A stretch of DNA of 63,056 bases, the filler included, from Sluysia triapertura (Eukaryota): the NCBI GenBank assembly GCA_046118255.1. It is 5 parts of 5 records of this genome, joined end to end, with 100 filler letters (N's around TTAATTAATTAA, not from the genome) between each part and the next. Parts side by side here need not be neighbours in the genome. Positions count along the whole stretch, not along the records: positions 1 to 14,174 come from JBJNIA010004335.1; 4 more parts are not named here. The stretch is one strand, 5' to 3'. The notes under the pieces are model-generated. The model did no database searches. It saw only the letters and a program-made list of their open reading frames with translations, and was not told where the DNA came from. How positions within the stretch are numbered: the first letter of the stretch is position 1; each line of letters starts with the position of its first letter. Shown here one piece after another: positions 1 through 50,498 of the stretch. A program made the translations under genes and the position numbers.

Positions 1-759
1 TATATAATTGGTGCTCACAAAAGTACCAACTTAGACATGTTATTGAAATCTACGTTCTACGTAGGGTTGACACATGACGTATTATATAAAAAAGAAATTT
101 GATATTTGATTAGTTTTATGTTTATTTTAAGTTGTTATATTATGTTCCTAACAAAATATTAGTGTAATAGTGATATTAAATCTTGATTGAGTTTGTTAAA
201 AAGTTAAGAAGATTTTTCCCAAATCCTATTATCTTTGGGTAATTTCAGGAGATAATATAATTGGAAGCCGACGAAAATTTCTACTGAAATTTAATTATTG
301 AAATAGGTCAGCTTATGACTGACTGCGAGAATGAATAACGATATGAAGTAATTATTTCCATGCTTCCATTTTTAATCTCCCAAGCAATTACCCAACTACT
401 ATAGATTATTCTTAATTGACTTTCAAGAAATTTTGTGACGAAATATTTTTCAAAAAGTGAATTACAAATTTTAAAATGATGTATTCACATTGCCTTTGTA
501 AACACACGCACAATAATTTTATCTAACTAACTTTGTATCGAACATTCAATATTTACCCAAGTGAAATTACGAGGAATTCAAATCTTCTACAGACATTATC
601 TTATTTATTTCATCGTTAGTTTAATTTGTATAAGTCTTTTGCAATATTTAAAATTGCATTTATAAAATACACGTAAATCCATTTCATTAAACTTTACAAC
701 TACTGTTTAAGTAAAGTAACTCAGTAATATTTTATTTTAAAAATAAAAATATAATAACC

Positions 760-1900
760 CAATAACAAACACATTAAAAATAATCCATTTAATACTTTCG
801 AACTCCTTATGTTATACTACACTTTAACAATTAATACCTAATATTTAATAACATTTATTCAATAATTTATTTGCTTAAACCTAATCACAATCATAAACTC
901 TTAACACAAACCACAAGTACATTTAATATAATTCCACAACACTAATAAATCTACTTGAAACGCATAAGATACATAATTCACATCTTCGAATCAATTATAA
1001 CGTCCCAAATGCACTATTCACCTATGCATAATCATGATCAACACAGTACAACACCAATAACATCAAAAAAATTAACAGAACAAAACATAGCATAATAACA
1101 TCTTAAATATGCGTATTGCAATTGTTCTTTTAGATTCATTAAATTACAACCCTCTCAATAAGCCTTTTAACCATGATATTTCAATACATAAATCTTGTTT
1201 TCAAATATAAACTTCAATCAATATCGAAGAATTTATTCTAACATTCTTTATTTCACTTCAAGACTCATATCAATTACTATATCTTCAAAGGTTAAATATA
1301 TTTCAATTTATCAATTCTTTCCAAACAATTCTTACTCAGTAATTTAGTTTCAAATACATTTTAATTCATTTTAACATGCTAAAACTTTTCAAGAATTTAA
1401 GGCAAATCGTATACAATTTTGAAGAATTCAATTTTATATAATGAAGTAACAACGATAACTCGAGCATAGTACACCCTGTTATCGTTGCAGTTTCATTCAG
1501 TTTTGTCAATTTTTATATTTTATTTTTATTCTTTATATGTTAAGAAGGTTTAATATTAAGAATAGGAAGATCGTGTAATTTTATTTAAAAGAGATTTATG
1601 CGGTTTTCTTATATTTATTTATTTTTGTTAATAATAATAATATTATTATTATCATTATTATTATTACCAATTATTAAATTAATTATTATAAAATTTTTAT
1701 AATTCAAAAATAGTTCAAAGAGTTGCTGCCATCGTCAGTATTGATACTGCTCGTCAAAATCTTCATTATTGTGTCAATACTGATGATGGTCAATCATCAG
1801 CAAAGCGTTTTGTATGCCAGATATAATTTTCTGGCCATCATCCAATCAGGACCGATTTTACTCATTTATCTTTTTTAAAGCCCTGATTGATGACCAACCA
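760..1900 (+). mobile_element. Structured promoter cassette, copy A (5' terminus eroded)
   Basis: C/A-rich arm shares motifs with other copies (TTCGAATCAATTA ~986; TTCATTAAATTACAACCCTCTCA ~1135). Hairpin 1440-1497. TATGTTAAGAAGG..AAGATCGTGTAATT..TTTATGC at 1536-1601. AAT/ATT hairpin. 20-bp stem 1728-1790. Inverted CCAATCAGG/CCTGATTG 1842-1889. Confidence 0.8.
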
Positions 1901-1995
1901 AAGCAAAAAATTAAATAGGAAAACAAAAAATAAAAATATCAACTAAAAACAATATAACGCGATATTATATGTGAATAATACAAAACGATAATCAT

Positions 1996-3470
1996 ATGAG
2001 TTCATTTAATAAATCCTTCTCAAATTATAGTCATGTAAACGACTTTTTACTAGATAAAAGTAAACAAAAAAATAAAGCACCTTTAAATGAATTTAAAAAA
2101 GCGATAATAAATGTTAGTGATGGTATTCGTCAAGTTTGATAATTTGGAATTTGAAAATTTGATAAACAATGCAGCTATACCTAATGAAAAATTAATGGAA
2201 AATAGCTTATTGAATTCTATAGACAGCTCGTTATCTAATTCACTCAGCGAAAATGTTTCATGTGAAGACGACGTACATAATTTGTGATTATATAATAAAT
2301 ATGCTCAATAATGTGTACAAACTTGATGGTAGAATACTTCATGAGTATGTGAACAATATTCAGAGGCTCTTATGTATAAATGCACATTTCAACGATGTAC
2401 CTAGATATGAACATTATAACATTCTATCGAATATATCATTAGACCATCATATTAATAAATGCCTCAAAATTGCATTTGATGAAAAGGAATTTAGCGATGA
2501 AATTAAAGTGATTATTGTCGTAGACGAAATTTCTAAGACTATTAAAGACTACAGATTAACTTTTTGTTATAATAAAAATGATTGCAGTATTAAAATACTG
2601 AGAATTAATAGTTATGATGTCTCGAAATTAAAATTATTAGTTAAAATTATTATTGATCATAGTAAAATGCTATTACAATATGAATTATTAGTAATGTTCC
2701 TTATCCTATGAGACACTCAAGAGAAGCTCACTTAGTTTTGTATAAAGAATTCGGATCATGTTACGAAGGTTTCGCTTCTTGACCTAATCAAGATTTATTG
2801 AATATGATGATGTAATTTTCCGAAGTATTCTTCTTGATGCATATGCGTCTTTTGACGTCTTGATTAAATTTTTCAATGTGGACACGAACAAACATAATAG
2901 AAGTTTGTCTACAAACTCTCCATTTCTTAATGATCTTATAAAAAAGTTGCTAAAAGATCAATAGAATTGTTGGATCAAAAAAATGAACCATATTATTTAG
3001 TAACATCCTCGTGTTGGGACGATCACGAGTTTTTGCAACAGTTAGATGTGTTAATGTACCTATTTAAAAGCAATGGTTCTCCGAATTTATTAAGTATTCA
3101 CAGTCCGATTGGAGATTCAAGATCAATCAATGAAGCTAATTCAATGTTCAGCTTTACTATAATTCATATTTCAAGTGGAGTTCTCGTTCATAAACATGGC
3201 TTGGTAATACAGTATCCGCCAATTCAAGAGTATGTGAAATCAATAAAAAATTCGCATTGTTTCCAATTGAAGTAACCACTTTCGGAACGGAAATCCATTA
3301 TTAACAATGTCTACGCTTTCAACTTAACTGTTCATTGGTAAATTTTAATCATTTGTATATAATTCATTGTTTTATTACCTTAATTTTTTAGATTACAATT
3401 AAGATACAAGGACTTACGAAATTCCGCGTCGTGCAGTATATATTTTGAAAGACTCTAGTTCAAAAATTTT
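1996..3470 (+). pseudogene. Disrupted cargo gene of unknown function downstream of cassette A
   Basis: ATG at 1996, ~100 nt after the CCAAT pair. Coding-like segments (ORFs 2253-2711 and 2967-3275) are broken by stops/frameshifts. Candidate GT-AG intron 3338-3391. No family recognised. Confidence 0.55.
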
Positions 3471-3529
3471 AACGATCCAAATTACATTTTTATATTTCAA
3501 TATATGTTCTATAAAATAGTTTGTTTAAT

Positions 3530-4130
3530 TTAAGGCAATTTCAAGTATCGAAAATCAAACTTAGTTTAATCCTAAGAATGTATTATCCTATAACGTTAAA
3601 AATAGAATTTACATTAAATAAGCATAAAGATTTAAACTCCAGAAGTACGACTTTTAATAACACAACAAATTTAGGAATTTATACAAAAATTAAGCCTATT
3701 TGGAAAGTAGGTCAAATAGTAACAATACGCAATGGTTATCCGACTTACAAACACAACTTCTACCCAAAATGCTGTCTGACATTAAAAACAAAATCCAAAA
3801 ATACGAAGGAAGTTTCATGTAACACCTTTTCTTAAAGAAATACCTATAAAAGCGACGGTGGAATCCAAAATCATAATTATAATTTATAAATTCTTGCACT
3901 AAGAAACACTTGTATATCCCTTTGAAATTATAAAACAATTCGGAAACCAAAATGAATATGTCTTTAAGTATAAAAATTTATAAAGAATCCACAGTGATAA
4001 TAAGTTAACTGATGGGTTATGCACCTTTATGTATCCAAACAGATCCTGCAGAATGTTAAATTACTGGAAGATTATAAAATATTTAAGAAAAGGCAATTGC
4101 TTTCTATTTCAAAAATATTATAGTAAATGA
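3530..4130 (+). mobile_element. Decayed L2/CR1-type LINE ORF2 3' fragment
   Basis: HVTPFLKE..PIKA..E.KIIIIIYKFLH at ~3816-3900, matching the cleaner copy at 37476-37566; TTNLGIY upstream. Confidence 0.7.
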
Positions 4131-4382
4131 TTTATTTTAACCGTTTTTGAGTACTTATTTTGGTACAATATAAATTAATGTATCGGAATTCCTAGTAAAA
4201 TGTCTCGGGTTTGACGTCTCAATCTATTTTCCTTATTACTAATTTATATATGAGGGTTACTATTAAGATCATCTATATATTTAGGTTTCTCTGATACATT
4301 ATCATTATCGTTTCCCAGAGTATTAACATTTTCAAGTATTTTGACATATTTTCCATTAATTGTTTCATAAAATAATGTAGAC

Positions 4383-5340
4383 TGTGGTGGCCAACTTTTC
4401 ACTATTAACAAATTTTATTAAAATATTTTCTTCTTAATACAACAAAATCATATACACCTTCAAAATCTACAATTTGCATTCAAAAATTCATCACAAGCAT
4501 TTTTACACACAGTTCAATACTAACAACCAAAATCATATCCCATTATCATCACACAAATACCCTTTGAATGTACCAAAATTTAGACTATAATTTATCTGTA
4601 CATTCACTAAACCACAATCCACTCAATGTATCTTTAGGTTACAATCTCCTAATATCCAAACATTATGGCCAATCAGAACATTAACGTATATATAAAAACC
4701 CACATAAAACATTTATATTATTGTAAATACTTAAGTTCATCTTCAGTCAAAAACATTAATTGACATCAAAAAATTCATTTTAAACGTCCTACACAATATT
4801 GTACAGCATTAGAACTAGAATCGCATCTTAAAACATCAACTATATATTTAAAACTAATTTTCATTTAAAGATGTTTAGTTTTAAATAAATTTAAATATGT
4901 TAAGAAGCATTAAAGAATACAAGGAAAGAGTATGTTTTAAGTAATATAAAGACTTTGTGCATTTATAACAATAATAACAATAACCATAACATTGTTATTA
5001 TTATTATTAATATTATTTGTATTTTAATTTTCATTACTTTAATTTTAAATACGTCCAGAAATATTCAAAGAAATTAAAAGAAAGTTCTCGTAAGATGTAA
5101 GGAATTTATGTATTTACAACAATAATAACATAGTTATTATTATTATTATTATTATTATCATTTTTATTCATTTATTATTTCTAACTTCTAATTCTATTTC
5201 GATCACTATCAATGGTTACTATGTACAAATTCTTGTCACCATTGATAGTGGCTTGTCTCTCAATTTCATGCAATGTTGCGCTATTAATATCTGTCCAACC
5301 AGAGTGGTCACGTTTATCATTTCAATACCTCCGGTTGGAG
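4383..5340 (+). mobile_element. Structured promoter cassette, copy B (full length)
   Basis: Starts TGTGGTGGCCAAC (4383). C/A-rich arm; two motif+AAY/RTT hairpin units (~4895-5170); stem 5203-5251; inverted TCCAACCAGAG/CTCCGGTTGGA 5294-5339. Confidence 0.85.
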
Positions 5341-5425
5341 AAGCAATAAAAATTTCCGTTTTAAATATACTCATTAGTTGGTATTAAATAATAAAAATCT
5401 GAATTTCAAAAATATCATTAAAAAT

Positions 5426-5692
5426 ATGACTCAGTGATTTACTGCAATTTTATAATACAATTATGCAATGATGAATCTTTTAAAATACCGAGATAATAGT
5501 TAATTATCGCATGTGATTTTCGAGGTAAATAGTCAAAATTTCAATCTTCATAATTTGTCGTTATCAATATCTTCGGATTATTTCAAAAAATGTTGTAAAA
5601 CCAAATTACTTATTAAAATTAGTAATTGTCCACAATATATAGAAAACTTTAAGAAGATTGTTAATCTTATTCATGTTAAGGATGTTGACTAA
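5426..5692 (+). pseudogene. BTB/POZ domain fragment (cargo of cassette B)
   Basis: Manual translation: MMNLLKYRDNS*LSHVIFEVNSQNFNLHNLSLSISSDYFKKCC..IKISNC..ENFKKIVNLIH. Fits the BTB pattern (SDV.F.V....F..H...LS..SDYF); in-frame stops. Confidence 0.7.
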
Positions 5693-5829
5693 TCTGATTA
5701 AAACAGATTTAAAATTACAAATATTCAAAAATTATATTCAAAAATTAAAAGGAATTACAAATTATTAAAATATTTACATATTTTTAAAAATAAATTACAC
5801 TCAAAATTGTATATTTACATTGCAATGTC

Positions 5830-7200
5830 TGGAAATGGAAACAATCTGTGATGTAACAGTTGGTTCCGGCTTCAAAGGATCCTGTAATAGCCAATTAGTT
5901 TCATACAATGGTTTTATATTCCTAATTTTATAGTGACATTTGACATTATGATAGTAGGAGATTTATGGGTTCATCATTTACAATATTATTTTGTTACAGA
6001 ATATCATGAACACTGTGTCCGGTTCCTGAAAGTTCAAAACTGTATTTTGGAAATTAGCTTCATCAACTATCTATTCTTGTCTATCCTTACTGATAAGTCA
6101 CTTCTTAAATCCTTTTCCCCAATTTGTTGTATTTGTAATGTAAAAATTTTAGATTCTTATATATATTTCGATATTATAAAATCCATTTCGTTTTTAAATA
6201 GAGATTATTTAAATGTAGTTAATAATTTTGATATCAATAATCAAGTTTATTTTCATAGTAAAAGTTTAAATGACCACAGATTAATAAAACTTAAGCTAAA
6301 TTTATTTTGCATTTCGTAAATGACAGAAGGTTTCATTACTTTGTTATGGTTTCCCAAATGATAACCGTAATCGTTCAAAAATCATCGCGCACTAAATTAC
6401 TATCGTAAAACAATTTTACATCTATTATTGATTATATAAATAACTTCTGTTACTAATGCGGTACTGGTAATTACTTAAGAACTTTAGCTTATTCATTCAT
6501 TATTAAATTAACTTTCATTAAAACTTTGGATTCTTCGATCCTCTCGCTTTTAACTGACCTTTCTTAACAGTTTTCTAGCTTTATTTTATAAGGGATGTAT
6601 TTCCTAATAAGAATAACTAAGTTTGGTTTAATACTCTCGGAATTATATCTGAAATAAGTAACTTATCTACAATTTTGTCAATATCTTTGCTTCTGCAACG
6701 CCTTTCGTAAACCATCTTACTTGATGTTGATTCTATGATATTTAACTCTCTATCTTCATTAACTGAGATTATTATTGGCTCATCTTCACTTAAGTTGTTG
6801 GAATCTGTTATTTATTTATTCACGAATAATTTAGTTTGTTTCTTCATTATTTACTGTACTTGTTTTTCTTTTATCAAATAGGTTTACTTCTTTACATTTT
6901 TCTTTCTTATCCTTAATCCTCTTTTTTGATCATACAAATATTGTCTTCTTGTTTGTCCTATCCTCTCAGAATTTCTTCCAATTTTCTTTATTTTTCTAAT
7001 TATTGTAAATCCTCTCCTATTTCTACGTCCTGGTTAATTGCTTCAACCTATTTTCTCTTTTTTTATTCTTCCTTTTTCTTTAAGAAATTCAGGAAATAAT
7101 CTTATACATATTGAAATACTAAACTTGGTAAAATTAAAACGAAGAATCTGACTTTTTTACTTTATCCGATATATGTTACCTTTAAAAGGTTTGTTGTCAA
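5830..7200 (-). mobile_element. Decayed paralog of the post-Gag region of the LTR element at 9209-12560, including the ubiquitin-like segment
   Basis: Minus strand 6340-6625 reads ..KARKLLRKV..KVLMKVNLIMN..LPV..DVKLFYDSNLVRDD..NDYGY, aligning to KARKLLIKI..KELMKISIIIN..LPV..DVDLYFYDRKLLPNDYINDYGY of ORF 11860-12252. Outer limits approximate. Confidence 0.7.
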
Positions 7201-8345
7201 GTTCAAAAACAAAATCTTTCTGTCCGTTCAGTTTAAATTTTAATTTTTTATAATTTATCTTTTCTTAAAACTTTCCATTTCAGAAAAACATATTTAATTA
7301 CGCCAATACCAAATAAATGATAGAATCATTAAAACCCAAAAAGAGTACAAAATTATACATTAATATACAAGAATAACATTAAAGATATGGAATTAATAAA
7401 AAATATCAATTAAAGTTAGATCAAAAAAGTCATTATCGTCATATGTGAACCATTGTTTTTCTTCTCTTGTCTTCAGTATTAATTCACGGTAAATATTCTC
7501 TTGAGCAGCCATGTCCAACCCAAATTACTCTTCGGGCCAAAATTTAGAAATGTACAAGGCACTGGGTCGCCACTCACCTGAACAAAAAAATTTCAATTGT
7601 AGCGCACACTCCCGCTCAAATGAGATACATACACACAAATTAGCATATATACAGATATACACAAAAATATATAGGTATTTTAGTAAATTACAATAGATAT
7701 TTAATACGAAACTTATTTATTATCGATTATTAAAATTTAAATATTAATTTGTGTGATTTCCTTTTTTTGTTATCGAGCCGCACTTTGGACATGACTGATC
7801 TAGTAAGTCATTTTCTATTAAGGCTGTTTTAATCAATTTTAATTAAACCTTTTAATGCCCCATTTACTGATGGTTAAATAATTTCTCTACTAATTAATAT
7901 TTATAAAATTAAAGACCTTAACAAAGTTTTAATTTTAAATTGTTTTATTTTTATTTCTTTTACTCTAATTGCTGCTTTACTATTAAGAACAATTTGTTAA
8001 TAAAAGTTTAATTACATTAACATTTGTGTTTTGTTATTTAGTTCTTTGTAATCACTTTTTATAATCACTTTTTCAATATGTCGGAGTTGTGACGTGTTAA
8101 AGCATTGTAATTACGATAATATATTAAAAAATGAATTATTTGAATTTTCTGTATAATAAGTTTATTATATTAAGACTCTAACTTTATAGCAATTAAAATA
8201 TATACAGTACGTTGAAGAGTAAGAAAATCGAAAGTTACATTTCTCTTTTTGTTATTTTGTTACAGAATTGCCAACTTTATGTTGTAAGTCCTTTAATTTT
8301 ATTTTGCCGTAAATTAGGAGTTAAGAAACCCACAGCATCATATTA

Positions 8346-8346
<1 letters not shown>

Positions 8347-8412
<66 letters not shown>
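8347..8412. repeat. (ATT)n microsatellite
   Basis: Direct tandem ATT; produces the poly-Ile ORF 8212-8550. Confidence 0.95.
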
Positions 8413-9208
8413 GAAATTATTATATTATTATTAAGTAAAATTATTGTTGTAAAGCATAAAAATATCTTTCTGCCCTATAAAGTTGAATCACTTTGTTTTT
8501 ATGAATGTTTGGTCCTATACGTATTTAACTTCTTACTGATTCAACACTAATGCTTTTTATTTATTTATTTCCTATCGAATGTAGTTATTTTCATTAATGA
8601 CAATCAAAGTCATTTAAATAAGTTCTTGTTAGTTGAATATTTATTTGTACATATATTTGTATATTTGTTAGTTGCATATGACTTTACAAAGGTCTTTTTC
8701 AAATGAATTGGAACAAATTTGTGCTGTGGATGAAGTGGTTTCCGTAAAAGAGAACGATTTAAAACACAGAATTAAAGATAAAAGAGTATATAAAGTATTG
8801 AAATCAACACAATTCACAAAAAAATTTTAAGAACAAAAAATTTTTAAACAAAAAATTTTTGAACACAAGATTTGGTTAATATAAACTTTGTTGGATCAAT
8901 CTTTCAAGCCTCTTGGTAATTTTCACAATTTATTGGATGAATAACTATTTATCTATCAACATTTTTAACATTAACTGTACATGTTAGTTTATTTTTTGTT
9001 AAGGCAGATATTATTTAAGAAATATTGAAAAATACAGGTAAATTCATTAACTTATTTTAATTTTCGTGATCTTGTAATAGATCAATGCAAAATCTTTTTA
9101 AAAATTTCAGTGACATTTGAATTACATTTGGTAATTCTAGAAAAATCTTTATCATTATTATTTTATTATTATATTTTGTACATATAATAAACCTTCCTAA
9201 AAGAAACG

Positions 9209-9495
9209 TGTTGAGTTATGATATAACAGAAAAATAAAATAGTCCTTAATTAAAAAATAGAATAAAGAATCCTTATTATAGGATCCATGCAAAATCACTC
9301 TTAGATTAATAGGATAAGTTAAAATAATATTAACAAAGTTACCTCCAGGTTTTTAGTTAGGAAGTTGATTGAAGTTTTGAGATTTTAAAACACCTTTTCT
9401 TTACGTAAAAATCCAACGGCTGGTCCTCGCTGGTGAACTCACGATATTTTAAATAAACTTTATTCTATACGCTTGCTTCTCACATATAGAATAAA
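9209..9495 (+). mobile_element. Putative 5' LTR (~285 bp)
   Basis: Begins TGTTG; AATAAA at ~9452; directly followed by a PBS. Core AAAAATCCAACGG..TGGTGAACTCAC..ACTTTATTCTA recurs in the inverted copy at 47582-47872. Confidence 0.65.
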
Positions 9496-9496
9496 C

Positions 9497-9514
9497 TGGT
9501 GCCCAGAGTGAGGA
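9497..9514 (+). promoter_or_regulatory. Primer binding site, probably elongator tRNA-Met
   Basis: TGGTGCCCAGAGTGAGGA. Its reverse complement CCTCACTCTGGGCACCA resembles the 3' end of animal elongator tRNA-Met (..CCTCAC....GGCACCA). Lies between LTR and gag. Confidence 0.65.
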
Positions 9515-9871
9515 CCAGTACTTGCAGTAATATGTAAATAAGATATAAAATTTTGATTAAGAAGAAGCTTCTTTTTGAAGAATTTAACAAGATTTTTACG
9601 AAGAATTAAGAGGATTTTGAATTAAGAAGTATCATTATTGAATAATTAAGCACTCTTTGAAGAATATTATTAAGAATTTAAGAAGAATTATTGAATAATT
9701 TGCGAATTAAGTATTTTTGAATAATTATATTAAGATTTCACTAAGAATAAAATAAATTTAAGTAAAATCATAACTTCCTAAGTTAATTATTGACAGATTT
9801 AGTAAACTTTAAGAAAAATAGATAAGCAATTAGTACTTTCAGAATAATAAAGATCAAATTTAAGGAACTAC

Positions 9872-12560
9872 ATGGCTTTACCTAATGAATTTAAAGATTA
9901 TATGGCACAATTAACCAGAGAAATGCGTCCAATAATATCTTTACCCGAAATGAAAAAATTTGACGGTGCAGGGGAAGATCTCTGCGATTTCTTATTTGAA
10001 TACGAAAGTATAGCAGAAGCTAACGACTGGAATGAAGCCGAGAAAATAAAACGGATCCAAAATTACCTAAGTGGAGTTGCTATCCAGACTTATAAGGAAA
10101 TAAGTGATAATAATAAGCAAACTCAGAATGAATTTCTTAATGCATGTACAGAAGAAATAGCCCTTGATGATATGGGTAAATATTAGACACAAAAGATTAA
10201 TACTAGAATACAAAAACCTAATGAATCCGTATATAAATATGCTCGCGCTCTTAAAAGCCTTGTTGCTGGAGCAAAAATTCCAGAAGTTAATAGAGAATTA
10301 ATATTAAAAGATAAATTAAAAACTGGATTACGCCATGAATTAATAACTTATGTTAATTTAATATATGGAAAACATTTTAAGGAAGTAATTAAAATTTTAA
10401 GGAGCATTGAACGCTCAATTATGCAAAAAAAAATAAGAATAAAATTGATTATGTAAGTGACAATGAAGAAAAAGGAGATAATAGTCCAAAATTAACAAGA
10501 AATAATTATAATGATTGATCTAATTATGAAGAATATAATGATAATAACTATAGTCAGGAACGACGTAATAGCCCACATAGAGGCAATAATAATTCAAATA
10601 ATTATAGAAGCAATAATAACTCAAATAATTATAGAGGTAATGATAATTATAGAAATAATTTAGAGGTAATTCAAGTAATTATAGAAGAAATAGTTCAAAC
10701 ATCACAGGGGTAATTCAAATAATTTTTGAAGAAATAATAATAGAGGATTCCAGAATAATAGAGAAAGCAATTATGGTGCTTCTATAAACAAAGACTGGCA
10801 CCGAGAAGGCCACTAAGTTCTAGTTTTAATAGGAATAGGAGTAAAAGCCCAACAAGATATGATAATAATAATAATCTTTGATAACTGTAATAAAAAAAGG
10901 ACATTATGCAAGAGATTGTAGGAAATTAAGGCAAAGTGTATTCACTCAGAATTTTAATAAGGTAAGGGGACATTACCAATGTCCAAATAGGAAAGTAAGG
11001 TTTAATGATAATAATAATAATAACAATAAGAAAGGACAAGTTAATTGTAATTATAAAAGCCAAAAGATTATGAATATAAAGATGAAGAAATAGAATCAGA
11101 AGACAATCAAGAAGAGCAGAAACAAGTAGTGATGAAGAAGATGACAAATACCTTAAGTTAATTTCAGGCGAAGAAAAGAATGCAATGCTACGAGAATTCT
11201 ATATTACTGGATTGGATTGTGACAAAAATAGATTTAAGAACAAACAAGAAAAAGAAATTTTTGAGTTATATGTACGACAGGTATTTAGAATTTCAAAAAG
11301 ATAAACAAAGAAGAGAACTAAGAGAAAAAGAAAATAGATTAACCATTCAACCAATTCAGGTTAGAATTCGAGAATTATTAGAACAACCTTCAGAAGAGAG
11401 TATTGAACAAATAAGAGATAAAAAAAGTAATATCAAGTGAAGATAAAAAAAAGAATTCAAGAATTATTGACAAATGGTAAGGAAAGACGAAGCAAGAATT
11501 AAATAAGCCAGTTGATAAAGAAATAGAAAGTAATGATGAAATAAAAGAATCAAGTATAGAATCAAGTTCAACGAAAGAAGAAATAAAATCAACAAAACAA
11601 CTCAGAATTAAGTGATGATCAAGAAGTGGAAAATGTCATTAATAAAGAAACAGATGATGTAGAAATGGAAATAGATGAAGATGCCTATTACAGTGCCACA
11701 GAAGAAATAGAAACAGGAGAGATGAAATCAATAAAAATATAGCTGCTAATGATAAAATAAATACCCAGAAACTAAAATTAAAGAAGTTAATCAAAAAGTT
11801 GAAGAATTTTTATCAAATATGACACATGTCAAAGACTTAAATGAAAGTTTAATGATTTATTGAATTCAGAATTAAATTTACAGAATGGATATGATATAAA
11901 ATTAGTATTAACTATTTTAAGTAAAGAAGACAGTTTATATAAGACTAAGGCAAGAAAATTATTAATAAAAATAGGACAAAAAGAAAGAAAAGATAAACCT
12001 AAGGAATTAATGAAAATAAGTATAATTATTAATAATGCTCTGAATACTACTATGGAACTCCCAGTTACTTCAATTGCTAAAGATATTATAGAATTACTCA
12101 AGTCAAATAACCCTGATATTACTGATGTTGATTTGTATTTTTATGATAGAAAATTGTTACCTAATGATTATATAAATGATTACGGGTATTCATCAATGAA
12201 TGGAAACCATGAGGAAGCATCAATGACTTCCGCAGTTATAATGGCGTACTAAGCCTTCCGATGATTTGAGAAAATTAGATGAATTTAGATGTTGATTTAG
12301 ACAGAATCCCACGTTCACTACTGCGAGAATTAATGGGAGATAATTACAATAAAAATAATAATAAAGTTATAGATAACCATAATGAAAGCAAGATTATAGA
12401 TATTACTAATGATAATGACGATTACACTGAAGATAAACCCGATTATATAATAGATTTAAATAAAAATCCGGTACAAATTTTTACAATTACAATGATACAA
12501 AATTAATCAATAGATCGCACACAATATCGATTTTATTCTGTCATCATAATATAAATCATA
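9872..12560 (+). pseudogene. gag: Ty3/Gypsy-like gag polyprotein pseudogene (capsid, N/R-rich linker, CCHC knuckle, acidic region, ubiquitin-like segment); no pol seen
   Basis: KFDGAGEDLCDFLFEYE..A..NDW.EAEKI..YLSG.A; read through TAG 10184-10186 to QKPNESVYKYARALKSL (Gag MHR-like); degenerate NCNKKGHYARDC knuckle ~10880-10920; many stops and frameshifts. Confidence 0.8.
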
Positions 12561-13051
12561 ATCATAACAATCCCATTTTTGACGGATCAGAGTAGTTACT
12601 GTAATACGAAAAGTGACAACACTAAAACACTAGTAATGATAGTGAGTAGAATATCTGTTAAATTAAAATTTCTTAATACTAAAGAGTTCTGAACATCTGT
12701 TGGAAATAATAGTAATTATATCTTATTAAGTTTAATATAAAAATAGTTAATAACATAAAATGTATGTGTGTAAAAGTAAGTAGACAAAGACAATGAATAA
12801 TTAAATGTGTTGTTATATTTTTTGTATGGGAGCTTGGAAAATTCCTTATTATCTTTGAATCACACCATACAATAATTTATATTTTTCGAATTTTATTTAA
12901 CAAACCCTACCAAAATCTAATATAATTAGAAACTTAAATAAACCGTAAAATTTAACCCTGAATCTAAAATTAGTAAACGTTGGCTTATTATTATAATTTT
13001 AATTTATAGATAGTATTTTAATAACATTTTTAGTGTAATAATAAATATACT

Positions 13052-13460
13052 TTGACAGTAGCAGTACAACACACTACAAGTATGTTCCAAAACCGATAGG
13101 GGAATATAATTATGTTACTGAAATATCAAAAAACATACAATATGAAGTTAGAGTTAATAATTAAATGTTTAATAATGTAGATTTTTGACAAAAATTACTT
13201 ACCCAACAAAGTCAGGATCACTATCTGGTGCATCTGGATCATCAACCTAATAAAATTAAATTTCATATATTCATTAAAATTACATCATCGCATAAACTGA
13301 AGTCAAATAATTTCGTAGATTCCATTTTCGGCTTAAAAAATATACTTAAATAAATCAATAAAAAAATTCTACCTCTTGTATTTCATTTCTTTTATTTATT
13401 GAAACTAAGTAATTATCTTTTATATCTTTCCATGCATTCTTATAATTATCGATTATTTCT
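13052..13460 (-). CDS. Short-exon spliced gene fragment, unknown function (possibly pseudogene)
   Basis: Four exons with short GT-AG introns join in frame: IIDNYKNAWKDIKDNYLVSINKRNEIQE|PKMESTKLFDFSLCDD|VDDPDAPDSDPDFVG|NIIIFPYRFWNILVVCCTATVK. An upstream hydrophobic segment (~13500-13600) contains stops. Confidence 0.5.
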
Positions 13461-14099
13461 AAATATAAATTGTTTAATAATTAAATTTTAATTACTTAGT
13501 TATTTTTGATTGTTATTAAATGTTAAGTGCAATGAAATTTGAATAATGATAATAATAATAAATAATGCTTATACAAAAAACATATCTACTACAGCATATC
13601 AATCATTCGAATAATATGTACTAATCTAATGCAACACGTTTATTATGTTAAGTTAATATCAACCAAGCCAAACTCGCATCTTTTTCTTCTTAAAGGTTAG
13701 TAGTGTCACTAATGTTGTTACTTTGACTTTGAATTTTTTATTTTAATAATTAAAATATCTAACTAATTAGTACAATACCTAACAAAACCATTATGTTTTA
13801 TATCTTTAAGCTGATGTCCTCACATAGGCTTCAAATACAGCAACTCTTAAATTAATAATAACTGTGTATCATCTTTATCTGTCAAGGTGCTATTATCATT
13901 GTGTCGATTCTTTAATAGTGATGCCACAATAAATTGACCAAAAAATGAATAGAAATGGAAATTGTCGTTCAATGTTTCGAACTTGTATTTTATCATTAAT
14001 TGACAAGCATTTATTTTTTAGCACACAATTCGCATTTGTCGTAATATTTTTAGTTCACTAATTTTTTTACAGTGACGCAGTAATTAATTTTAGTATCAC

Positions 14100-14102
<3 letters not shown>

Positions 14103-14174
<72 letters not shown>
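14103..14174. repeat. (ATT)n microsatellite running into a gap
   Basis: Direct tandem ATT. Confidence 0.95.
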
Positions 14175-14274: not shown

Positions 14275-14879
14275 TATTTGTATTTTATCACTGATTTTAT
14301 TGTTATCATTTCTGCTACATCTACTTATACGAGCTTCATTTTAATTCTTCTGAAACAAAAAGAATTTTTCCTTTTTACGAAAGTGACAATCATTTAAATA
14401 TACTTTTCAATGATTAGAATTTCGTCATAAATTAATTTAAATCTTACGTACTAAACAATGTCTTGTTTTGAACAAAAGATTATCGTCAATTGAATAGTCA
14501 ATTTTTAATATCATGCATAACTTTTATCGTTATATAACTGTAGGCAGGGCTTCTTCGTTGTAGAATCGTTTGATAATTTCTATGTAAAATTCTGTTTTTA
14601 ATTTTGAAAATAATGCTGCAAGGCACTTCTAGCCAAACAATAATGAAATAAAAATGTCTTTGTGTTACTAATATATTCAATTAAGAACTCATTTATTTAA
14701 AATAAACTCATTCATTTAAATTAAATCATTCACTATAATATTTCTAGAACAGGCATAACTTTACTTTTTTTAAAAAGCATTTTAAAAATATGTCAGAAAA
14801 TAATAATCTTTAATAATTAGAAATTCTCATTATAAAAAATCGATATTTTATTTTGTCGATGTTAAATTTTTATTGTGAA

Positions 14880-16012
14880 TGTGGTGGTCAACCTTCACTA
14901 TTATTAAAATCTATAAAAAAAATAACCTTCTAACACTCTAATATTCACATTTATCTCCTCCACACTCGCTAAAACAGTTCATCTGCCAAAATCAAGTCAT
15001 ATCCACAATCTCGTAACATACAAACCACACTCACACCCAATACCACCAATTTACATCAACAAATCCACCATAAATATGTTACTCGACATTCGTAACAATC
15101 AAACTTTTAACCACATTCGAAATTATCCACTCGACACTTTCGAATCAATTACAACATTTTAAATTAATCATTTGTTATCATATAATCCCTAACAGCACAA
15201 AACATAATACCACTTAAAAACAGCAAGAGAACAAATCACATTAGCAACACTTAACTTTCGAATATACCAAGAGTGGACTATAACTTATCTTTTTCACATT
15301 CACTAAACTACACCCTTCTCATTGTATCTTTTGTTCACAATCTTCCAATGTTCAAATGTCGCTTTCAGTCAAAAACATTAGTCATCATCTAGAAATTCAC
15401 TCTAACGTTCTACATTTTACTGCATAACAATGTAAAACGTCAATTATATACTAAAAACACATTCAAAACAACCTTTACGTAAAGATATTTAGTTTAAATA
15501 CATTTAAATTTATTAAAATATGTTTAGAAATCTAAAGTATTTAAAACAAGAATTCAAAAGTTTATGCAGTTCAATAACAACAATAACTATAACATCATTC
15601 CTCTTGTTATTGCACTCAATTCAATTGTTTTTAATTTTAACTCAAAATATGTAAGAAATTTAAAGAAAAATAAATAAAGATCATGAAAGCTTAGCAAGAA
15701 TTTATGCTTTTTTAACTTTTCAAAATAATAATAATAATAACAACAGTGTCCTTGTTATTAATATTATTATTAACAATTCATCATTATCATTTCTTAATTA
15801 AAATTTTGACGAACAAAATCGGCTGTGTTACTGCCATCATCACAATGACATATTTGTTTTACATTAACAATTTTTCTGTCATTGGTGATGAGGGTAGTCA
15901 TCACAGTTGATTGCTTCAACACCTAGTTAAAATGTTAAATGATTGCATTGGCTATCCAACCAAATGCGCTTCTATGAAAGTGTATTTGGATCATTTGGTT
16001 GGATGTCCAATC
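14880..16012 (+). mobile_element. Structured promoter cassette, copy C (full length)
   Basis: Starts TGTGGTGGTCAAC. C/A-rich arm; two TATGT.AGAA..TTTATGC+hairpin units (~15517-15780); stem 15823-15906; inverted ATCCAACCAAATG/CATTTGGTTGGAT 15954-16004 with outer ATTGG/CCAAT. Confidence 0.88.
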
Positions 16013-16127
16013 AGCAAGAGAAATGATAAAACATCAAAATTTTTAATCAAAAATTGTACACAATTTAATTGTTACAAAAGTTATAAAAAATTTAAAAGTT
16101 GGAGGAATATTAAAAAAGAATCAATTT

Positions 16128-17454
16128 ATGTCGAACCAAATGAATAAAGAATTACAGTGTAACTCTAAGCTTAATTTTGAAATCGAATTCATGGCATCAT
16201 TTCGTCAACTAGTAAATGAAATTAAAAAGTTGTATGGAACACAATATGATTCAGTTTGTCAAATATTTGATATCCTAATGAAGTTTTCTCTAGCATCAAC
16301 CGAGAACACCAGCAAATTATTTAGTTTAATAATTAGTAATTTATATGCAAAATTCAAATAGAACGATATTATTTAATTCGCGTACGCAATTCAGATTACA
16401 TAGTTCCAGTTTTAGAATGGATAAAAGTTTTCAATCATTGGATCCAATGTATACATATAGTAAGCGATTATTATTTTTTAATGAACTATTTCAGTCCCTA
16501 ATAGCGAACGTTTTAACAAGATATATTATATTTACTCATTTTACTTTTAGAATATGTTTAAAGAGAAAAATTAATACTACATTAAGTCAAATGAATAATA
16601 TGAATGAATCTATGATTCTCTTAATTGATTTTCTGAAAGGCTATGGTCGTATTAATGAGAGTATCGCCATTTTATTTAATATGTTGATGACTGCTTATAG
16701 TGGAGATAATTTAAAATTTGTAGCACAAGATAATGTTCTACTATATGTTACAGTTTTATTCAGCTATTTTACATCTTTTCATAATGATCCAACAATAACG
16801 TTTTGTGATCATTTACCTTATTTTGTGTTAAATACAAAAAAAGAAATAAATGTTCATCATGTTATGAGTTATCCATTTTATCAATGATAACATGACTTTT
16901 GATTTTATACTTACATTAATTGATCGAATTTTCAGAGATGTTCTCAAGTTACTAGATTTATCAAATGTTTTAAATTATAAAATAAACATCGTCTATAAAA
17001 TGTCAAATAAGGATAAATTGAATAAAATTGCTGATTATGATAATGTTATCAGTGATGGTTTTACAAACGTTTGTATGAGTATTTGAAGATGCGAATATTG
17101 TATGAATTGTATAATATTGATACAAAACTTATGCGAAAATTATCCAAGCTCGATACAACAGATGCTTTTACTCTATTAGAAAGTTATTTATTGCAAAATA
17201 ATGTCCAAATAAATGCTAATAAAAGTAATTGCACAGATCGTTTATGGTTTCGAGACCAAAATATAATGGCATGGACTATACAAGTCTTACAGCATCCTCA
17301 TAATGTAATTATTTCTTTTCTTTTCTTTGTCTATAATTTAAACCTTCATTTTAATTTAGATGATGAATCTTGGGCTAAGTCGAATGACATTCGTAAGAAT
17401 ATAACAACGAAATTTAAACTTTGTGTTATAACAAAAAATAAAAAACTATTGTAG
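16128..17454 (+). pseudogene. Frameshifted ~440-aa cargo gene of unknown function downstream of cassette C
   Basis: Four abutting or overlapping + ORFs (16128-16361, 16345-16887, 16892-17086, 17071-17454). ATG ~115 nt after the last CCAAT. Confidence 0.6.
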
Positions 17455-19717
17455 TAGTTAATGTTTTCTTAATTGACTTCCTTAATTTGTTCATAATAAA
17501 CCTAAATAAAATTTTAAAACATAATTCGCAACGAATTTAGATTTTATGATACAATTAAAATTTATATCAATTTTGATTTCAAAATTAAAAGATCTATTAC
17601 TAAACTAAATTGTTTTCATTTAAAATTAACATTTAAAAATACAACTATACCAAACAAATTTTAATATTTAATATTCAATTTTTCAATAATATCTATAAAT
17701 AATGAATAGATGCAAAATTAATACAAAACAATAATGGAGGAAACTTTTTAAAACCTATTAGATAAAATAGACAACTCATGATATTCGTGGTTATAGAACT
17801 ATATAGTGGATCTATTAAGTTAGACATTTAACTGTTCAAATCAAACTGTCGATGTCAATAGCAAACATAAAATTTAATTTCACTTAATTCGGCATATCTA
17901 TTATTGTTTTATTGGAATATGCTTAAACGAACTAAAAGCAAAAAAAGAAACAACAAATAAATTGTTGTTTTATAGATTATTATCAGTAATTAAGGGATTA
18001 ATGCAAACTGAAATAAATCAATATAAATTTTTTGTGTTTAATAATAATGTAAATTTTTTAAAAATTTTATATTAAATTAAATAAATCAATAAATTAAACA
18101 AATCAATGTACTTACTAAAAAAATCTTTAAATTTCAAAAAAAGCAATGCAAAATGAAAAAGCTTTTTCAGTAAAGCAAAATAATTATCGATTTCGTTAAT
18201 TATCATAAAATTCGCAACATTTTCGATTTTTTTGAAGTAAGTGTGCATCTTACGTATGAATTTTTGAGAGTTTATTTTATAAAGACTAAAAAATGTATCT
18301 TTAAAAGAATTATTAGTAATAAATGCATTAAAAATATCAAAAATTAATGATTTGTTGATATTTATATGCAATGATTGTAAAATCGTAATATAAAACTTAG
18401 TATAATAAAACAATTTTTAAAATAACTTTGACATTCACATTACGAAAGAGTTGCCTTAACTCTAGTTTATGAACGTCTCAGTATATTTCATTCACATTAA
18501 CATTTCATCCATGTCGAATAGAAAATTATAAATAAATCGAAAATAGACAATATTTAAACAAATCCAATAATAATAATAATAACAATTATAATAATATCTC
18601 AGCAGAATGTTTAACATTGTTCGTTTTATTCAGTCACTTTTAGTACAATATTTTGAATAAAAGATTGTCGTACGACACTAATTTTATACAAAAAATCATT
18701 TAATATATTTTTAAAATCATACAATAATTGTATGATTAATCGTTGTTTAGGTTTATTTCTTTTTAAATGTCTCAACCACTCATGACAGTTTTTTACTCAT
18801 AAATTCGTACCTAAATTTATACTCAACTGACGCACAAAACGTTTTCAATACATCACCAACTCATTGCATTCAATAGAAAATACAAGCCTTTTAATTAATT
18901 ACATCCCAGTTACAAACAGGAAATTGTATCACTATTCGTATTCAAATTACAAATCATAAAATTACAAAATATAAAAAATTCACAATAAAATTTACAATAT
19001 TACAATTGTAATAATTAATTATTCTAACATTAATTTTTTGATCGTCGGTACAAAATATTATCGACTTTCACGTTATTTTTGTAATTTAATTTTTGTGATT
19101 TATTTTCACCTTTAATCTTAGATTTCTAATATGAAAATGCTAAACTAATAATACCAAATACTCAAAAATATGCATTATTCGTGATAATATTGAAATAATG
19201 TCATGGTTTCCTTGAAAAATAAAAGAAAATAAGAAATGATGAATGAATTTTCGAAATTACACAAACGGCCTCGCATCGTATTGAATAGTTTTATGTTTCC
19301 AAATACGTTTATGATTTAATTGAAATAACGACTGAAAGAACTGAAAAATATTTGATAGATTATTACAATATTTATGCAAAGTCATCTAAAATAAACACTG
19401 GTGACAGAACCTCTTCTGGAAGTTATTCAACTGACTTGTTATAGTAAACTGGAAGCTGAATTTTCAAAGTCATTATAATATATAGTTCAGCAAAAATGTA
19501 TTTGCAACTAACGAAAGAAAAATAAATATTATCAAATTCTTTCAAGAATTGATTCAATGATTTACAGAAGCGTTTCACCAAACACTGATCATAAGCTTTG
19601 AATCAAAGTTTGTCATCTTTACTCCCGATATTGGAAATTATCACATTTTAATATTTATTACATATTTTATTTTAAAATTATTTAACATTTGTTATTATAT
19701 TTATTATTATTATAATT

Positions 19718-19752
19718 AATATTATTATTATTATTATTAATATTATTATTAA

Positions 19753-19804
<52 letters not shown>
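19718..19804. repeat. (ATT)n microsatellite, imperfect
   Basis: Tandem ATT. Confidence 0.9.
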
Positions 19805-22149
19805 TTACATAGTGAGCCATAGACAATTTTCATTTTTTTAACGTTTTTTTAAACAAAAATTTTTATACAAAAGTTTATTTAAAACAATACATAAAAGAAA
19901 TATATTTGTATGAGATCTTAAAAAAGAAAATAAAAATAAGATGAATGTAAAAATTAGCAAAAAAATAATACAATGAAATAAAGGATTATTTGAAAAAAAC
20001 AGAAAGTTATTTCTATTAATAAGGAATTAGAAAATACTATATGATGAAAAGATAAACCAATCAAAACTTCAGATCAAAAATCAAATAAAAATTAAAATTA
20101 AACAAGCAATTTAATTACACACACACAGACACAAGCAAATATACTTAACCCTTTAACCCTTTCAAATAAAAATTATTTACTTCAGTTAAGAGCAATATTT
20201 TAGTAAGAATAAAATTTAAAATTATCTTCTGCAATTTGAAGCTGTTTCTACGTCTATTTTTAGTGTAAATTTAAAATTTCAATTTGAAGTTTCGCATTTT
20301 AATCTCCTAGTAGAAATTGTACAGTCAAACAACTTCCATAAAAGGAATTTAAAATAACATGTTTTCTTTTGGTATGAAATAATATTTTCTATGTAAAATA
20401 TAGTCAACTTTCTTCAAATTTGAAATTGTCTCAATACTTATTTTAGCTATAAAAAATTATAATTTAAAATTACGTGAGTTTCTATGTCCTGCACATCTAA
20501 ATGAAATCAGTTATTCATAACATAGATAAGCGACACCCGCTCCCAGCAATTCATCAGATCGCTTATTGGTGACAGCCTCAATAACATTGGAAAATTCGTA
20601 ATTAATGATGTAAGTGATGTAGGTCTTATTAATTTTAATTCATTGAATAAAATTTACGATACTAAATGGAAAATAAAACTTAATGAATTTGTCTGTAGTA
20701 CGTGACAATTTTTATAAAGAAAATGTCAGACAAATAATCTTACGTACGAATGCTATATTAACAAATGTAATGCTCAAAATCTTACTTTTACATTAAATCA
20801 CAAATAACACTACTTTAATGTTTCTTTATATTAAGTTATTGTGGGATTTTAGAATGATAATTTGAATTTATAATATTTTTAATGTGAAATTTATTCACTT
20901 TATTCAAAATGAGAGATGATAAATACAGGATATCATAAAGGAACAATAGCTAATTAATATTTTTATAATAAACACGAGGAATATACAAAGTTGTATTATA
21001 CTTGACCTATTTAATTGACGTAATTTAATATTGATTTTATCAGTCTTTTTAAAATGTCTTTTAAACTACCCCCAAAAACAGATGATTAATTCGAGTTATG
21101 ACTTAATTATAAATTGGGTACCAAAATTAGCTTCTTTTTTTGTTAAAATAAAAGTTTGAAAAGATTTTAAAGTTTTTTTTAACTGTCTTAAATGTTCTTA
21201 TTTTTAAATCAATTTCTGTCTGAATTTTATGCTCCTTGAAGCGTTCCATATACAAATTCTGTTTGAGTGTATGCCTGGTACTATTACACAACAAATAATT
21301 TTTTGTACTAATATTCACCTTAAAGGTTATTTATAACTGAATTATTATCATTTTATTTACATTATTATTTTATTATCGTTTGAGTTAAATTTTCTAATCT
21401 TTATTTAAGTAATAAATTTAACCGTTTTTGATCTATTCGATAATTAACGAAAGCAGCCTATTTCTAAACATATTTTTTAAAGAAACATTGATGAAATTTC
21501 AATGTCACTACCAAAAAAATTTGCTTCGGCAGTCTTTATACAAATTATAATTTAAAATCTTTATTAAGATATATTTCGTATTTTTTAAAAATTATAAAAA
21601 TAGAAAAAATCATTTTAATTAAATGTTAATAGAAATAAAAAAAAGGAAATCGTCAATCAAATATGACAATTTAATACTCGAAGATATTATGCAATGTATA
21701 AATAAAATTCGTTATTTGTTGGTAATATTAAAACAACATGTTTAACGATAATTTATGAGTCACATTAATTAGAATACAATTAATGTTTTAAATATATTTA
21801 TTTTAAAACAAATAATAAAAAAATTTCTTTAATAATTAATAAATAACAATAAACTTATTTTAACAATTAATAATTTTGCAGATTATTTCATTAATTTAGA
21901 ATTGTACATTATTCGATCAAAATTAAATATTTATTATCTCTTGTTCTAAGATAAAATGTTGTACCTATTTATTTAAAATTATTAATAAATAATGAATTGA
22001 TAATTAATTAATTATTAACTTGCAAATAGTTAAATACTGGAAAATTATGTATAAATAATTAAAATTAATAATTACAATTTTAATTTTATGCAACGAATTT
22101 TGGAAAATATTAAGTTATGCCATCATTGTAATGATGTCAACATAATGAT

Positions 22150-22975
22150 ATAAACATAATGTACCTTTGAAACCTTCATTTTAAGTTTTGACACTTTGTC
22201 TGGATGCACTTATTTCGTCTGCCGGTATCGGTCGAGCAATTACAAGTAATGTATCATCTTGTAATCTTCTGAAATCTTCTAAAAGCAATATGAATGAGTT
22301 CTCAAATGGTCCAATGTTTTCACACAAATATTACAATGATCGATCGAGAGCCTTGAGTGATTTTTGTGTATTCATCTCAAACAATAATTTTTCATTTCTG
22401 CAACACTTTTTCCATATTGAATGCTTCAAGAATGTTTCACATGAGAGTTTCAATGAATTGTATATTCAATGGCAATTACAAAGTAGAAAGAGCAATTCAA
22501 AGTCTCAGCTATTCTAGCCGATTTAAGTGTTAATGATACGTCATTGATTGCTTCCAGAATCAATCTAATTAGGCGCATCTAAGAAGATTTACAGTTTTTT
22601 CTCAAGAGTTAGGTTTTGTAAGACAAATGATCCATGTTTTTTTAGGAGGTAATTATATACCAAAAGAAGCAGTAGCAGATTGATTAAGTGATGGTATTCC
22701 AATTTCATTAGTCAGCAGAAATCTTCAATCATTATAAATTTCTTCTGTGAAATTCATATTCATATTTGAATATCTTCAGCCATACCTGATTTATATATGT
22801 TTCTAATACTCTCTTGGATTTGATTCGGATGTAACGTTCTATCCCCGTTTAATTTTCCATTTGCAGAGATATTTCTTTCAATCTTAATAAAATTTTTGAC
22901 ACATTACTTCGTATCTCTTGTAAAAAGCCAGCTGATATTTGAAATAAATCTGCATTGATAAAGTTTTGGGTTTAG
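22150..22975 (-). mobile_element. Helitron RepHel PIF1-type helicase pseudogene fragment
   Basis: Minus-strand pieces YKSGMAEDI..FTEEIYND, IFLDAP (22571-22588), IRLILEAI, KVLQK*KIIV*DEYT, KSLKALDRSL, GPFENSFILLLEDFR, TLLVIARPIPADEISA follow the Helitron helicase motif order (FLDAPGGTGKT..IIWDE..ALDRSL..PFGG..GDFRQ.LPVI..ADE). Confidence 0.88.
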
Positions 22976-22997
22976 TCGAATAATAATTATTACATGA

Positions 22998-23726
22998 TGT
23001 GGTGGCCAACACATTATTTTATGACATCAAAATCATATTCAACATTGAACATCATCAATCATACATTTAAAAAATTAATTTAAAACATTTTAAATTTAAT
23101 TCAATAAATCGCACATTATACAACATTTTACTATTTTTCATCAAAAACTTTTCCATATTTTATTTCCTTTACATCCACTAAAACCTTATTCTAACATTTT
23201 CAAAAAAAAATTTCTATTTTATAACCTAGTAACATTAAATTCATATTCACTTTCAGATTAATAATAGATATTTAAAAATTCATTAAAAACATTTTTACTC
23301 ATAGTTCCATAACAACATAACCATAATCACATCTGTTAACATCCTTCAACTACTTTTAGAATCTATCAAAATCATCTTTCATATCTCAAAACATTTTATA
23401 ATTACAATCTGTTAACAACGAAATCATAAGTATTTTCAAAACTATCAATCTACATTTTAAAACTCAGTTAAAACATTTTACATATTGTCTAATAATATTA
23501 ATATCACAATTCCACCTAAATCTTCGAACATACATCTTAAATTCAATCCAAAACATTCCATTTTTGCAATCCTTTAACAATCACATTTTAAATTAGTTCG
23601 AATCAATAGAATCAAAAAGTTTCATTTATATTTAAACTAAATAAATTTATTTATATCGAGAAAAGTTTCAATAACAGAATGATCGTGTTTTAAAGAAATG
23701 AATTTATGGTTTTATGTTTTAATTTA

Positions 23727-23782
<56 letters not shown>

Positions 23783-23966
23783 TTATTCATAAATATATAC
23801 TATTATCATTTTCATGATTAGTTATCTAATTTGGCCTTCACCAGTTGAGAGAAGTATTAAACTAAATCATTATATTGTATCTAACTATCAAACTGGCAAT
23901 TGATGAGACATCCAATTAATTGCATTTCTGCTTTACGTTTAGTCTCATTTAATTGGATGCCCAATC
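22998..23966 (+). mobile_element. Structured promoter cassette, copy D (internally deleted)
   Basis: Starts TGTGGTGGCCAAC. TTTACATCCACTAAAAC ~23168; GATCGTG..GAATTTATG ~23680-23709; (ATT)n; residual stem 23841-23896; inverted CATCCAATTAA/TTAATTGGATG 23909-23959. Confidence 0.82.
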
Positions 23967-26500: not shown

Positions 26501-26510
26501 TTACTAATCT

Positions 26511-27130: not shown

Positions 27131-27212
27131 AAACAAACATAAAACCAGGCGAGATTAAAAATAGAAACTCAAATTGAGCATAGAATCACAATTAGAAATT
27201 TAACCGATTTAT

Positions 27213-30860: not shown

Positions 30861-30961
30861 TAAAAATTGAGAGTTGACAACAGTTATAAAATTGATCTTG
30901 GATTTTGAATATGTTCATGAAGTGTGGCGGCTATAAACAGTTTTATGTCAAAACTAATAAT

Positions 30962-33898: not shown

Positions 33899-33930
<32 letters not shown>

Positions 33931-50430: not shown

Positions 50431-50498
<68 letters not shown>

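Follow-up and report, generated by a model that had tools for sequence, protein, structure and literature searches.

A covarying inverted repeat in a possible promoter module of a high-copy repeat from Sluysia triapertura

Layout of the repeat unit and the frames behind it

The stretch of Sluysia triapertura DNA analysed here (the window, 63,056 nucleotides) consists of five contigs of 11-15 kb each, joined by N-linkers (1-14174, 14275-26510, 26611-37566, 37667-52165 and 52266-63056), and has a GC content of ~24%. The DNA is animal-like, judging by a tropomyosin-like frame (Pfam E 7e-09), an NIF phosphatase and a PANK4 piece that best matches proteins of molluscs, nematodes and annelids. Several copies of a repeat unit lie in the window. 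In this unit a sharp TGT end is followed by a C-rich leader of ~0.6 kb, a stem (HP0), a second stem ('h'), an (ATT)n tract, the inverted repeat HP1, one or two CCAAT- or CCAAC-bearing stems and, last, frames on the same strand.

The sharp left end, TGTRGTGGYCAAC, begins four copies on the + strand and two on the - strand, with unrelated flanks. On the + strand, left end and leader were found in copies B (4383-4950), C (14880-15555), D (22998-23600) and G (30344-30830), the last without the stem module, and copy A has a leader (994-1411, +) for which the terminal motif was not found. On the - strand the terminal motif and a leader-like start lie at 37667-37830, cut by the contig end, and likewise at 52266-52409, where the fifth contig begins. 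The terminal word of 13 nt is thereby present at six ends, and its reverse copies occur only at these two contig starts. Judged by sequence, the two - ends could be either another subfamily's left end or an unrecognised right end. The sharp end reads TGTGG or TGTAG, that is TG and more fully TGTNR in 6/6 ends, and the base preceding the terminal T is C, A, A, C, T and T. The two - ends are more like each other (z 3.5) than like the four + ends (z <=1.8). A Helitron (HLE1), with its 5' TC start and its 3' hairpin plus CTRR, was rejected, as the sharp end reads TGT on the + strand and ends in ACA on the - strand.

The leaders are rich in C (19-24%) and poor in G (4-7%), as compared to 13% and 12% in the window, and local alignments showed them to be 59-72% alike between copies. 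Their GC skew of -0.5 to -0.7 (4383-4900, 14880-15520, 22998-23600 and 30344-30830) ends at the module, and the cargo has a skew of ~0. Such a skew is compatible with long single-strand exposure or with leftward transcription of the - strand. The terminal word is absent after every cargo at 0-2 mismatches and no far (right) end was found; likewise, the window search gave no target-site duplication and the window frames include no mobility enzyme (transposase, Rep/helicase). Because none of these three was found, the mobility of the unit is something that we infer.

The family is a large one. When contigs of run X1 were mapped to a 240-nt stretch, 461 matched, only 48 of them at >=99%. Depth, summed over contigs, was 12,000-34,000 in the leader and went up to ~35,000 in the 3' arm, with 10-28 for the longest single contigs, and the stretch after copy A had a depth of ~100-630. 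As depth is no copy number, we say 'many hundreds or more' copies and nothing finer. In metagenomes, an arm pattern of 18 nt found at least 119 loci; among the 119 listed, none has a partner arm and none fits a profile of HP2, of the upstream part, of the end or of the leader. Module A had no match among phage records, and in the open-access literature we found no description of the repeat family.

HP1 is one of 4-6 inverted repeats per module. The upstream part of module A (1440-1680) holds HP0 (1440-1497), the G-U-rich stem 'h' (1563-1611) and an (AAT)/(ATT) microsatellite. Homologous blocks are found in B, C, D, E and F, and the (ATT)n tract stands ahead of HP1 in A-F. Downstream of HP1 lies HP2, a CCAAT-bearing stem in copy A (1830-1902), a CCAAC variant in B (5288-5345) and an inverted-repeat stem in C (15943-16017) and D (23901-23967). 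Copy E carries HP2 together with a second CCAAT stem, HP3 (26985-27128), and in copy F (50685-50754) a 16-nt palindrome holding CCAAT is present twice. HP2 covaries too (p=0.0004), and the spacing of its boxes is 39-44 in 6/7. In B, C and D, HP1 is found 820-954 nt inward of the sharp end; its distance to the first CCAA box downstream is 42-77 nt. The modules make up 4.8% of the window and contain 16 of its 107 CCAAT/ATTGG matches (p=5e-5), an enrichment to be read with the fact that the modules are partly defined by the CCAAT-bearing stems themselves. No TATA-like word was found at a shared place in the modules. The DECA-CCAAT composite element was considered and rejected; its geometry, GAnnGAC 10-12 bp from CCAAT, occurs in 0/6 modules.

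The frames behind the modules are one-sided. Counting frames of 90 or more codons up to 1.5 kb downstream of each of the six modules gave ten on the + strand and none on the - strand, and this holds for 6/6 copies. An ATG lies 84-115 nt past the last stem in 5/6 copies, ATG being common in window DNA. Behind module E a 411-codon frame (27320-28555, +) has an N-terminal part that is weakly TRMT10C-like (E 0.18-0.6, not significant); queried as a 405-aa frame, it had no homolog with E<=0.001, nor did the Atlas give a usable hit. Also after module E lies part of the C-terminus of a PANK4-type (DUF89) phosphatase (29057-29507, +; E 1.6e-17). This piece is broken: it is colinear over 153 codons, without an intron, and carries one stop and one frameshift. 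A UNK-like CCCH zinc finger follows module F (51560-51652, +; E 1.9e-07, at the Pfam cut-off) and a degenerate CCCH finger follows leader G (31977-32060, +; E 0.011), both with AG-ending intron-like tracts behind them. Apart from these fingers, tblastx found no coding module common to the cargos. The frames after A and C had no match in a PDB search, PHROGs gave weak unnamed matches only, and of ten window proteins none is present in the cluster collection. By eye, a possible third and very degenerate CCCH-like motif lies at the end of E's cargo (30020-30120). After leader G there is a 15-bp tandem repeat (31300-31584), in which two + frames and one - frame are open.

Pairing and covariation of the HP1 arms

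HP1 in copy A (1728-1790), the stem under study, is a 20-bp stem around a 23-nt loop. The corresponding stem is 17 bp with a 15-nt loop in copy B (5203-5251), 20 bp with one bulge, a 26-nt loop and an extended lower stem in C (15831-15897), and 15 bp with a 36-nt loop in F (50555-50620), where both arms are equally 2 nt shorter. In copy E (26887-26949) the outer 9 bp are paired around a 45-nt loop and the inner stem is broken. The ten arm strings of the original prediction were each found once and where expected, with arm starts at 1728/1771 (A), 5203/5235 (B), 15831/15877 (C), 26887/26941 (E) and 50555/50606 (F). The loop range of 15-40 nt given there holds for A, B, C and F but not for E. 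A stem in each copy had also been proposed, which is right for A, B, C and F; copy D (23835-23896), absent from the earlier list, is eroded, E is broken in its inner part and G lacks the module.

In the listed arms 73 of the 81 pairs are Watson-Crick, 5 are G-U, 1 is A-C and 2 are other. Strong inverted repeats, defined as 14 nt with <=1 mismatch, a loop of 10-50 and >=5 G/C, occur at six places in the window, all inside modules, and in 0/30 locally shuffled windows. Folding z-scores, from windows picked around the stems, were +0.2 for D, whereas copies A, B, C, E and F scored -3.0 to -6.3.

The claim that pairing is kept despite sequence change is borne out, as covariation among five rows aligned with MAFFT was well above chance. 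The copies compared are those inside the window, of which 5-6 are alignable. The MAFFT alignment is wrong in the inner arms of B, D and F, so covariation was counted on 11 outer pairs with D left out. Over these pairs 51 of 55 cells pair in the five copies (92.7%), and 5/11 pairs show two-sided change, which was equalled in 1 of 500 shuffles. The covariation score was 0.50 vs <=0.21 for slid partners, and RNAalifold gave 13 pairs, 6 of them with two-sided change. Arm identity is 13.8/17 within a copy vs 9.35/17 for the same arm between copies, and the true assignment of arms was the best of 120 permutations. The stems had been described as of different sequence, and sequences do vary between copies, but the arms are homologous variants of one word: of the outer 10 arm positions 3-8 are common to copies, and 5-8 of 10 in the 3' arm.

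A and B differ by five mirrored substitutions in 17 bp, one of them a transversion, and A and C differ by three transversions, in both arms. For these transversions, as for the two-arm 2-nt shortening in F, there is no G-U route, and changes of this type are compatible with arm-to-arm copying. The span of HP1 is 61 nt in A, C and E, 66 nt in F and 49 nt in B, and the spans are constrained although the loops differ. The spacings suggest a possible helical phasing, noticed post hoc on 5-7 values. In E (26888-26948) the inner 5' arm is A-like (6/9) and the inner 3' arm B-like (7/9); judging by these words, the HP1 of E is possibly a recombinant between subfamilies.

Template switching has been described as homogenising arms and yielding multi-base compensatory changes, also in promoters (PMC8794818, PMC8604942 and PMC13100816). 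Could the symmetry then be functionless, with template switching alone matching old inverted repeats and only the CCAAT words of importance, either inside a repeat or in the promoter of a tandemly copied zinc-finger gene? Compensatory-looking change does arise without selection according to PMC8604942, and here D, E and G lost the stem wholly or partly and single copies show one-sided changes. On the other hand, the 4-6 stems keep their order and span though the leaders are only 59-72% alike, and single copies decay off symmetry, with 6/7 one-sided changes in A, B, C and F on the 5' arm (hand count). We consider such a functionless symmetry decidedly improbable. The reported template switches are single host-gene events, with mirrored multi-base changes as here and promoter repeats included, whereas in the window the pattern marks repeat subfamilies and comes with no spacer inversion. 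As to this signature of template switching, none of 36 loop pairs matched in reverse at p<0.1.

G-U pairs and strand preference

All three non-Watson-Crick positions in copy A are G-U on the + strand, as had been claimed. However, in the contigs of run X1, whose depth is unphased and not a copy number, the family majority is A at position 1734 (1177.8 of 1201.1 depth) and C at position 1745 (2720.7 of 2843.4 depth). As the majority is Watson-Crick at both, two of the three G-U pairs in copy A are private decay. The third is terminal and common to A and C, with G-C in 13% of depth.

In the listed HP1 arms the ratio of G-U to A-C is 5:1 (p=0.22), in extended HP1 alignments 9:7 and in 22 stems together 28:30, the extended (local) alignments having their ragged ends included in the count. 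Stem 'h' by itself is biased 14:2 toward the + strand (p=0.004), and HP0, HP2 and HP3 together 5:21 toward the - strand. Since neighbouring stems favour opposite strands, no single strand accounts for the module. The original prediction had named symmetric G-U and A-C mismatches as the sign of a mere dyad protein site or arm conversion, and the near symmetric counts (9:7; 28:30) come largely to that. Of its proposal that selection acts on a single-stranded RNA or DNA structure, the kept pairing stands, but for RNA or for a particular strand the G-U evidence fails. In 'h', at 1563-1611 and 26736-26775, tandem G-U pairs on the + strand are kept in A and E and the arm words are near-identical. 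From its sequence, 'h' is the module's best candidate for a true RNA structure.

Within the subfamily of A, variation of >=5% was seen at 7/23 loop vs 3/40 stem positions (p=0.029), and at 5/40 stem positions when the two private changes in A are counted (p=0.10). At position 1774 C makes up half of the depth (unphased), and no partner change is listed at 1744.

HP1 has the size of a microRNA precursor, a ~60-nt hairpin with ~20-bp arms, and it may be asked whether it is an RNA hairpin, pri-miRNA-like or a source of hairpin RNA, transcribed on the + strand. The span of 61 nt in 3/5 copies and the lower stem in C would suit this, as would the greater folding stability on the + strand in A, B and C, the G-U-rich 'h' upstream and the 5:1 ratio in the listed arms. 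Furthermore, maize transposon palindromes give small RNAs according to PMC4728375. Against this, no mature arm or seed is conserved among the copies (3' arm 5-8/10), two of the G-U pairs in A are private, the span in B is 49 nt, the CCAAT boxes come after HP1 and no known microRNA family matched. No window sequence reached gathering score in Rfam (sub-threshold matches were six in C and two in A), and the best scores were 14-23 bits vs gathering scores of 60-140. An RNA hairpin, such as the small-RNA precursor first suggested for this stem, is rated as unlikely.

A possible promoter module, related systems and other repeats

Our results can best be explained if HP1 belongs to the promoter module of a mobile element with gene cargo and acts as a symmetry in DNA, not in RNA; we give this reading a little less than an even chance. 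As the module lies just ahead of broken host-gene pieces, a DNA-level promoter is likely. The module would drive transcription of the downstream frames on the same strand, and the whole unit would have moved as a transposon. The symmetry may act as a hairpin or cruciform in DNA and may be under selection. In the replicating lineage, template switching or conversion would keep the two arms matched; each subfamily would thereby fix its own stem sequence, and dead single copies would then gather one-sided changes. Arm matching in the spreading lineage is likely, because single copies lose the symmetry and subfamilies keep it. A fixed protein site does not explain the mirrored sequence change. A replication origin or packaging site had been suggested, but a promoter fits better, as the only sharp end is 0.8-0.95 kb away from the stems, and CCAAT boxes and co-oriented frames come downstream of them; neither do the loops hold a conserved nick motif, as expected for the suggested nicking site. 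The + bias of 'h', the + stability of HP1 and the terminal G-U common to A and C speak against a promoter acting as DNA. So do copy G, in which cargo and a CCCH finger are present and the module is missing, the damaged stems in D and E, the unpartnered C at 1774, and the failure to find spacer inversion, a shared TATA-like word or the DECA-CCAAT geometry.

By analogy, the module would work most like the Sirevirus cis region and the MITE-derived Caenorhabditis promoters; for no family compared did the module show the full set of membership features. In maize Sirevirus LTRs (Ji, Opie; PMC4728375) several palindromes also lie upstream of a transposon promoter, with arms more conserved than centres, a structure kept across families of differing sequence and the capacity to form hairpins. 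These are plant Copia elements with paired LTRs, a PBS, a TATA box and short GC-rich palindromes, whereas here the arms are 15-20 bp, the spacers 15-45 nt, and neither an LTR pair nor a PBS was found. The Caenorhabditis repeats CERP2/CELE2 are MITE-derived germline promoters bound by HIM-17 (bioRxiv 10.1101/2022.01.21.477252). Like the present family they are high-copy, non-autonomous and without a known enzyme, and supply pairs of promoter motifs. Their m1 and m2 are two different protein-read motifs, unlike the mirror arms that shift by subfamily here, and the genes downstream of the present modules are multicopy broken fragments.

The stems could also serve a rolling-circle element of Helentron type as signals in single-stranded DNA, with cargo taken up by read-through. 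A single sharp end with variable cargo, mosaic host fragments on the same strand, the internal microsatellite and the co-oriented pairs A-B, C-D and E-G on three contigs would agree with this, and the leader skew of -0.5 to -0.7 is what single-strand deamination of the - strand would give. HINE/DINE-1 Helentrons (HLE2; PMC4067079 and PMC11417382) are likewise high-copy and non-coding with a microsatellite, and the 13-nt terminal word has the size of their paired 12-15-bp subTIRs. For circovirus, palindrome repair at its rolling-circle origin has been described (PMC2690592). However, HINE palindromes are 5-10 bp (PMC4067079), whereas the stems here are internal, much longer and at least 0.8 kb from the sharp end. 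HINE/DINE-1 inserts between T and T and has a short stem-loop 8-35 bp from the 3' end, an end that could not be located here. This terminus has no TC start or CTRR end, no partner subTIR stands behind any cargo at 0-2 mismatches, the loops share no conserved motif, the window holds no Rep/helicase and the stems disagree on strand. On balance a rolling-circle origin of the stems seems unlikely.

The TGTNR terminus in 6/6 ends is shared with Ginger1/Ginger2 and with Gypsy LTR ends (PMC2836005). Ginger has 40-270-bp TIRs and a 4-bp duplication, and here no paired end was seen in five contigs of 11-15 kb. If leader and module were instead the U3 of an LTR, with cargo acquired by LTR-mediated retroposition, the TG start, the palindrome-rich cis region ahead of a promoter (cf. 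Sirevirus LTRs), the G-poor sense strand and the PANK4 piece, intronless over 153 codons, would find their place, and chimeric partial retrocopies are typical according to PMC5131818. Yet there is no near-identical second LTR, neighbouring copies being ~60% alike; inspection by eye showed neither a primer-binding site nor a CA end common to the copies, the search gave no shared match of ACA plus flank and no target duplication, and AG-ending intron-like tracts stand behind both CCCH fingers. This makes an LTR very improbable.

The CRESS nonanucleotide and the hammerhead core were searched for with generally known patterns. A CRESS-type origin was rejected, the nonanucleotide (<=1 mismatch) being present in 2/6 loops and on opposite strands, and so was a Penelope pLTR or retrozyme, with the hammerhead core in 0/6 modules on both strands and no match in Rfam.

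If the promoter reading is right, new genes could arise in this lineage on a large scale from a portable promoter set before mosaic pieces of host genes, and the family would offer a natural high-copy test bed for covariation by structural selection vs arm-to-arm copying; HP1 alone is a detail of a repeat family. It also illustrates that covariation with a few G-U pairs can mislead, the G-U pairs here being mostly private decay. A bolder reading, which we hold to be quite unlikely, is an undescribed animal element at superfamily level, one-ended and gene-capturing, with thousands of copies, a promoter recognised not by its sequence but as several DNA cruciforms in a row, each of fixed span and with both arms rewritten per subfamily, and captured host fragments fused to its own RNA-binding CCCH finger. 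In such an element, arm rewriting might evade sequence-guided silencing.

Additional coding and repeat sequences were observed in the window. On the - strand an unbroken 430-codon frame (43868-45160) holds an NIF/CTD phosphatase domain (E 4.8e-20); its closest database relatives are 31-33% identical, and no module was found upstream. Three related decayed coding stretches (6339-7080, 11440-12252 and 24935-25345), one inverted and one behind module D, look ubiquitin-like by eye and had no Pfam match. The decayed frame at 9851-10900 has by eye the look of a retrotransposon gag, with no Pfam match at E 0.05. Three tRNA-like short repeats (46322-46484, 53154-53319 and 57323-57497) are 71-73% alike, and ARAGORN called no tRNA in the window, these repeats included. 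Finally, the fragments at 3785-3895 and 37445-37564 seem to resemble the C-terminal part of the reverse transcriptase of L2/CR1-type LINEs, and the first of them adjoins a very high-depth repeat at ~4050-4162.
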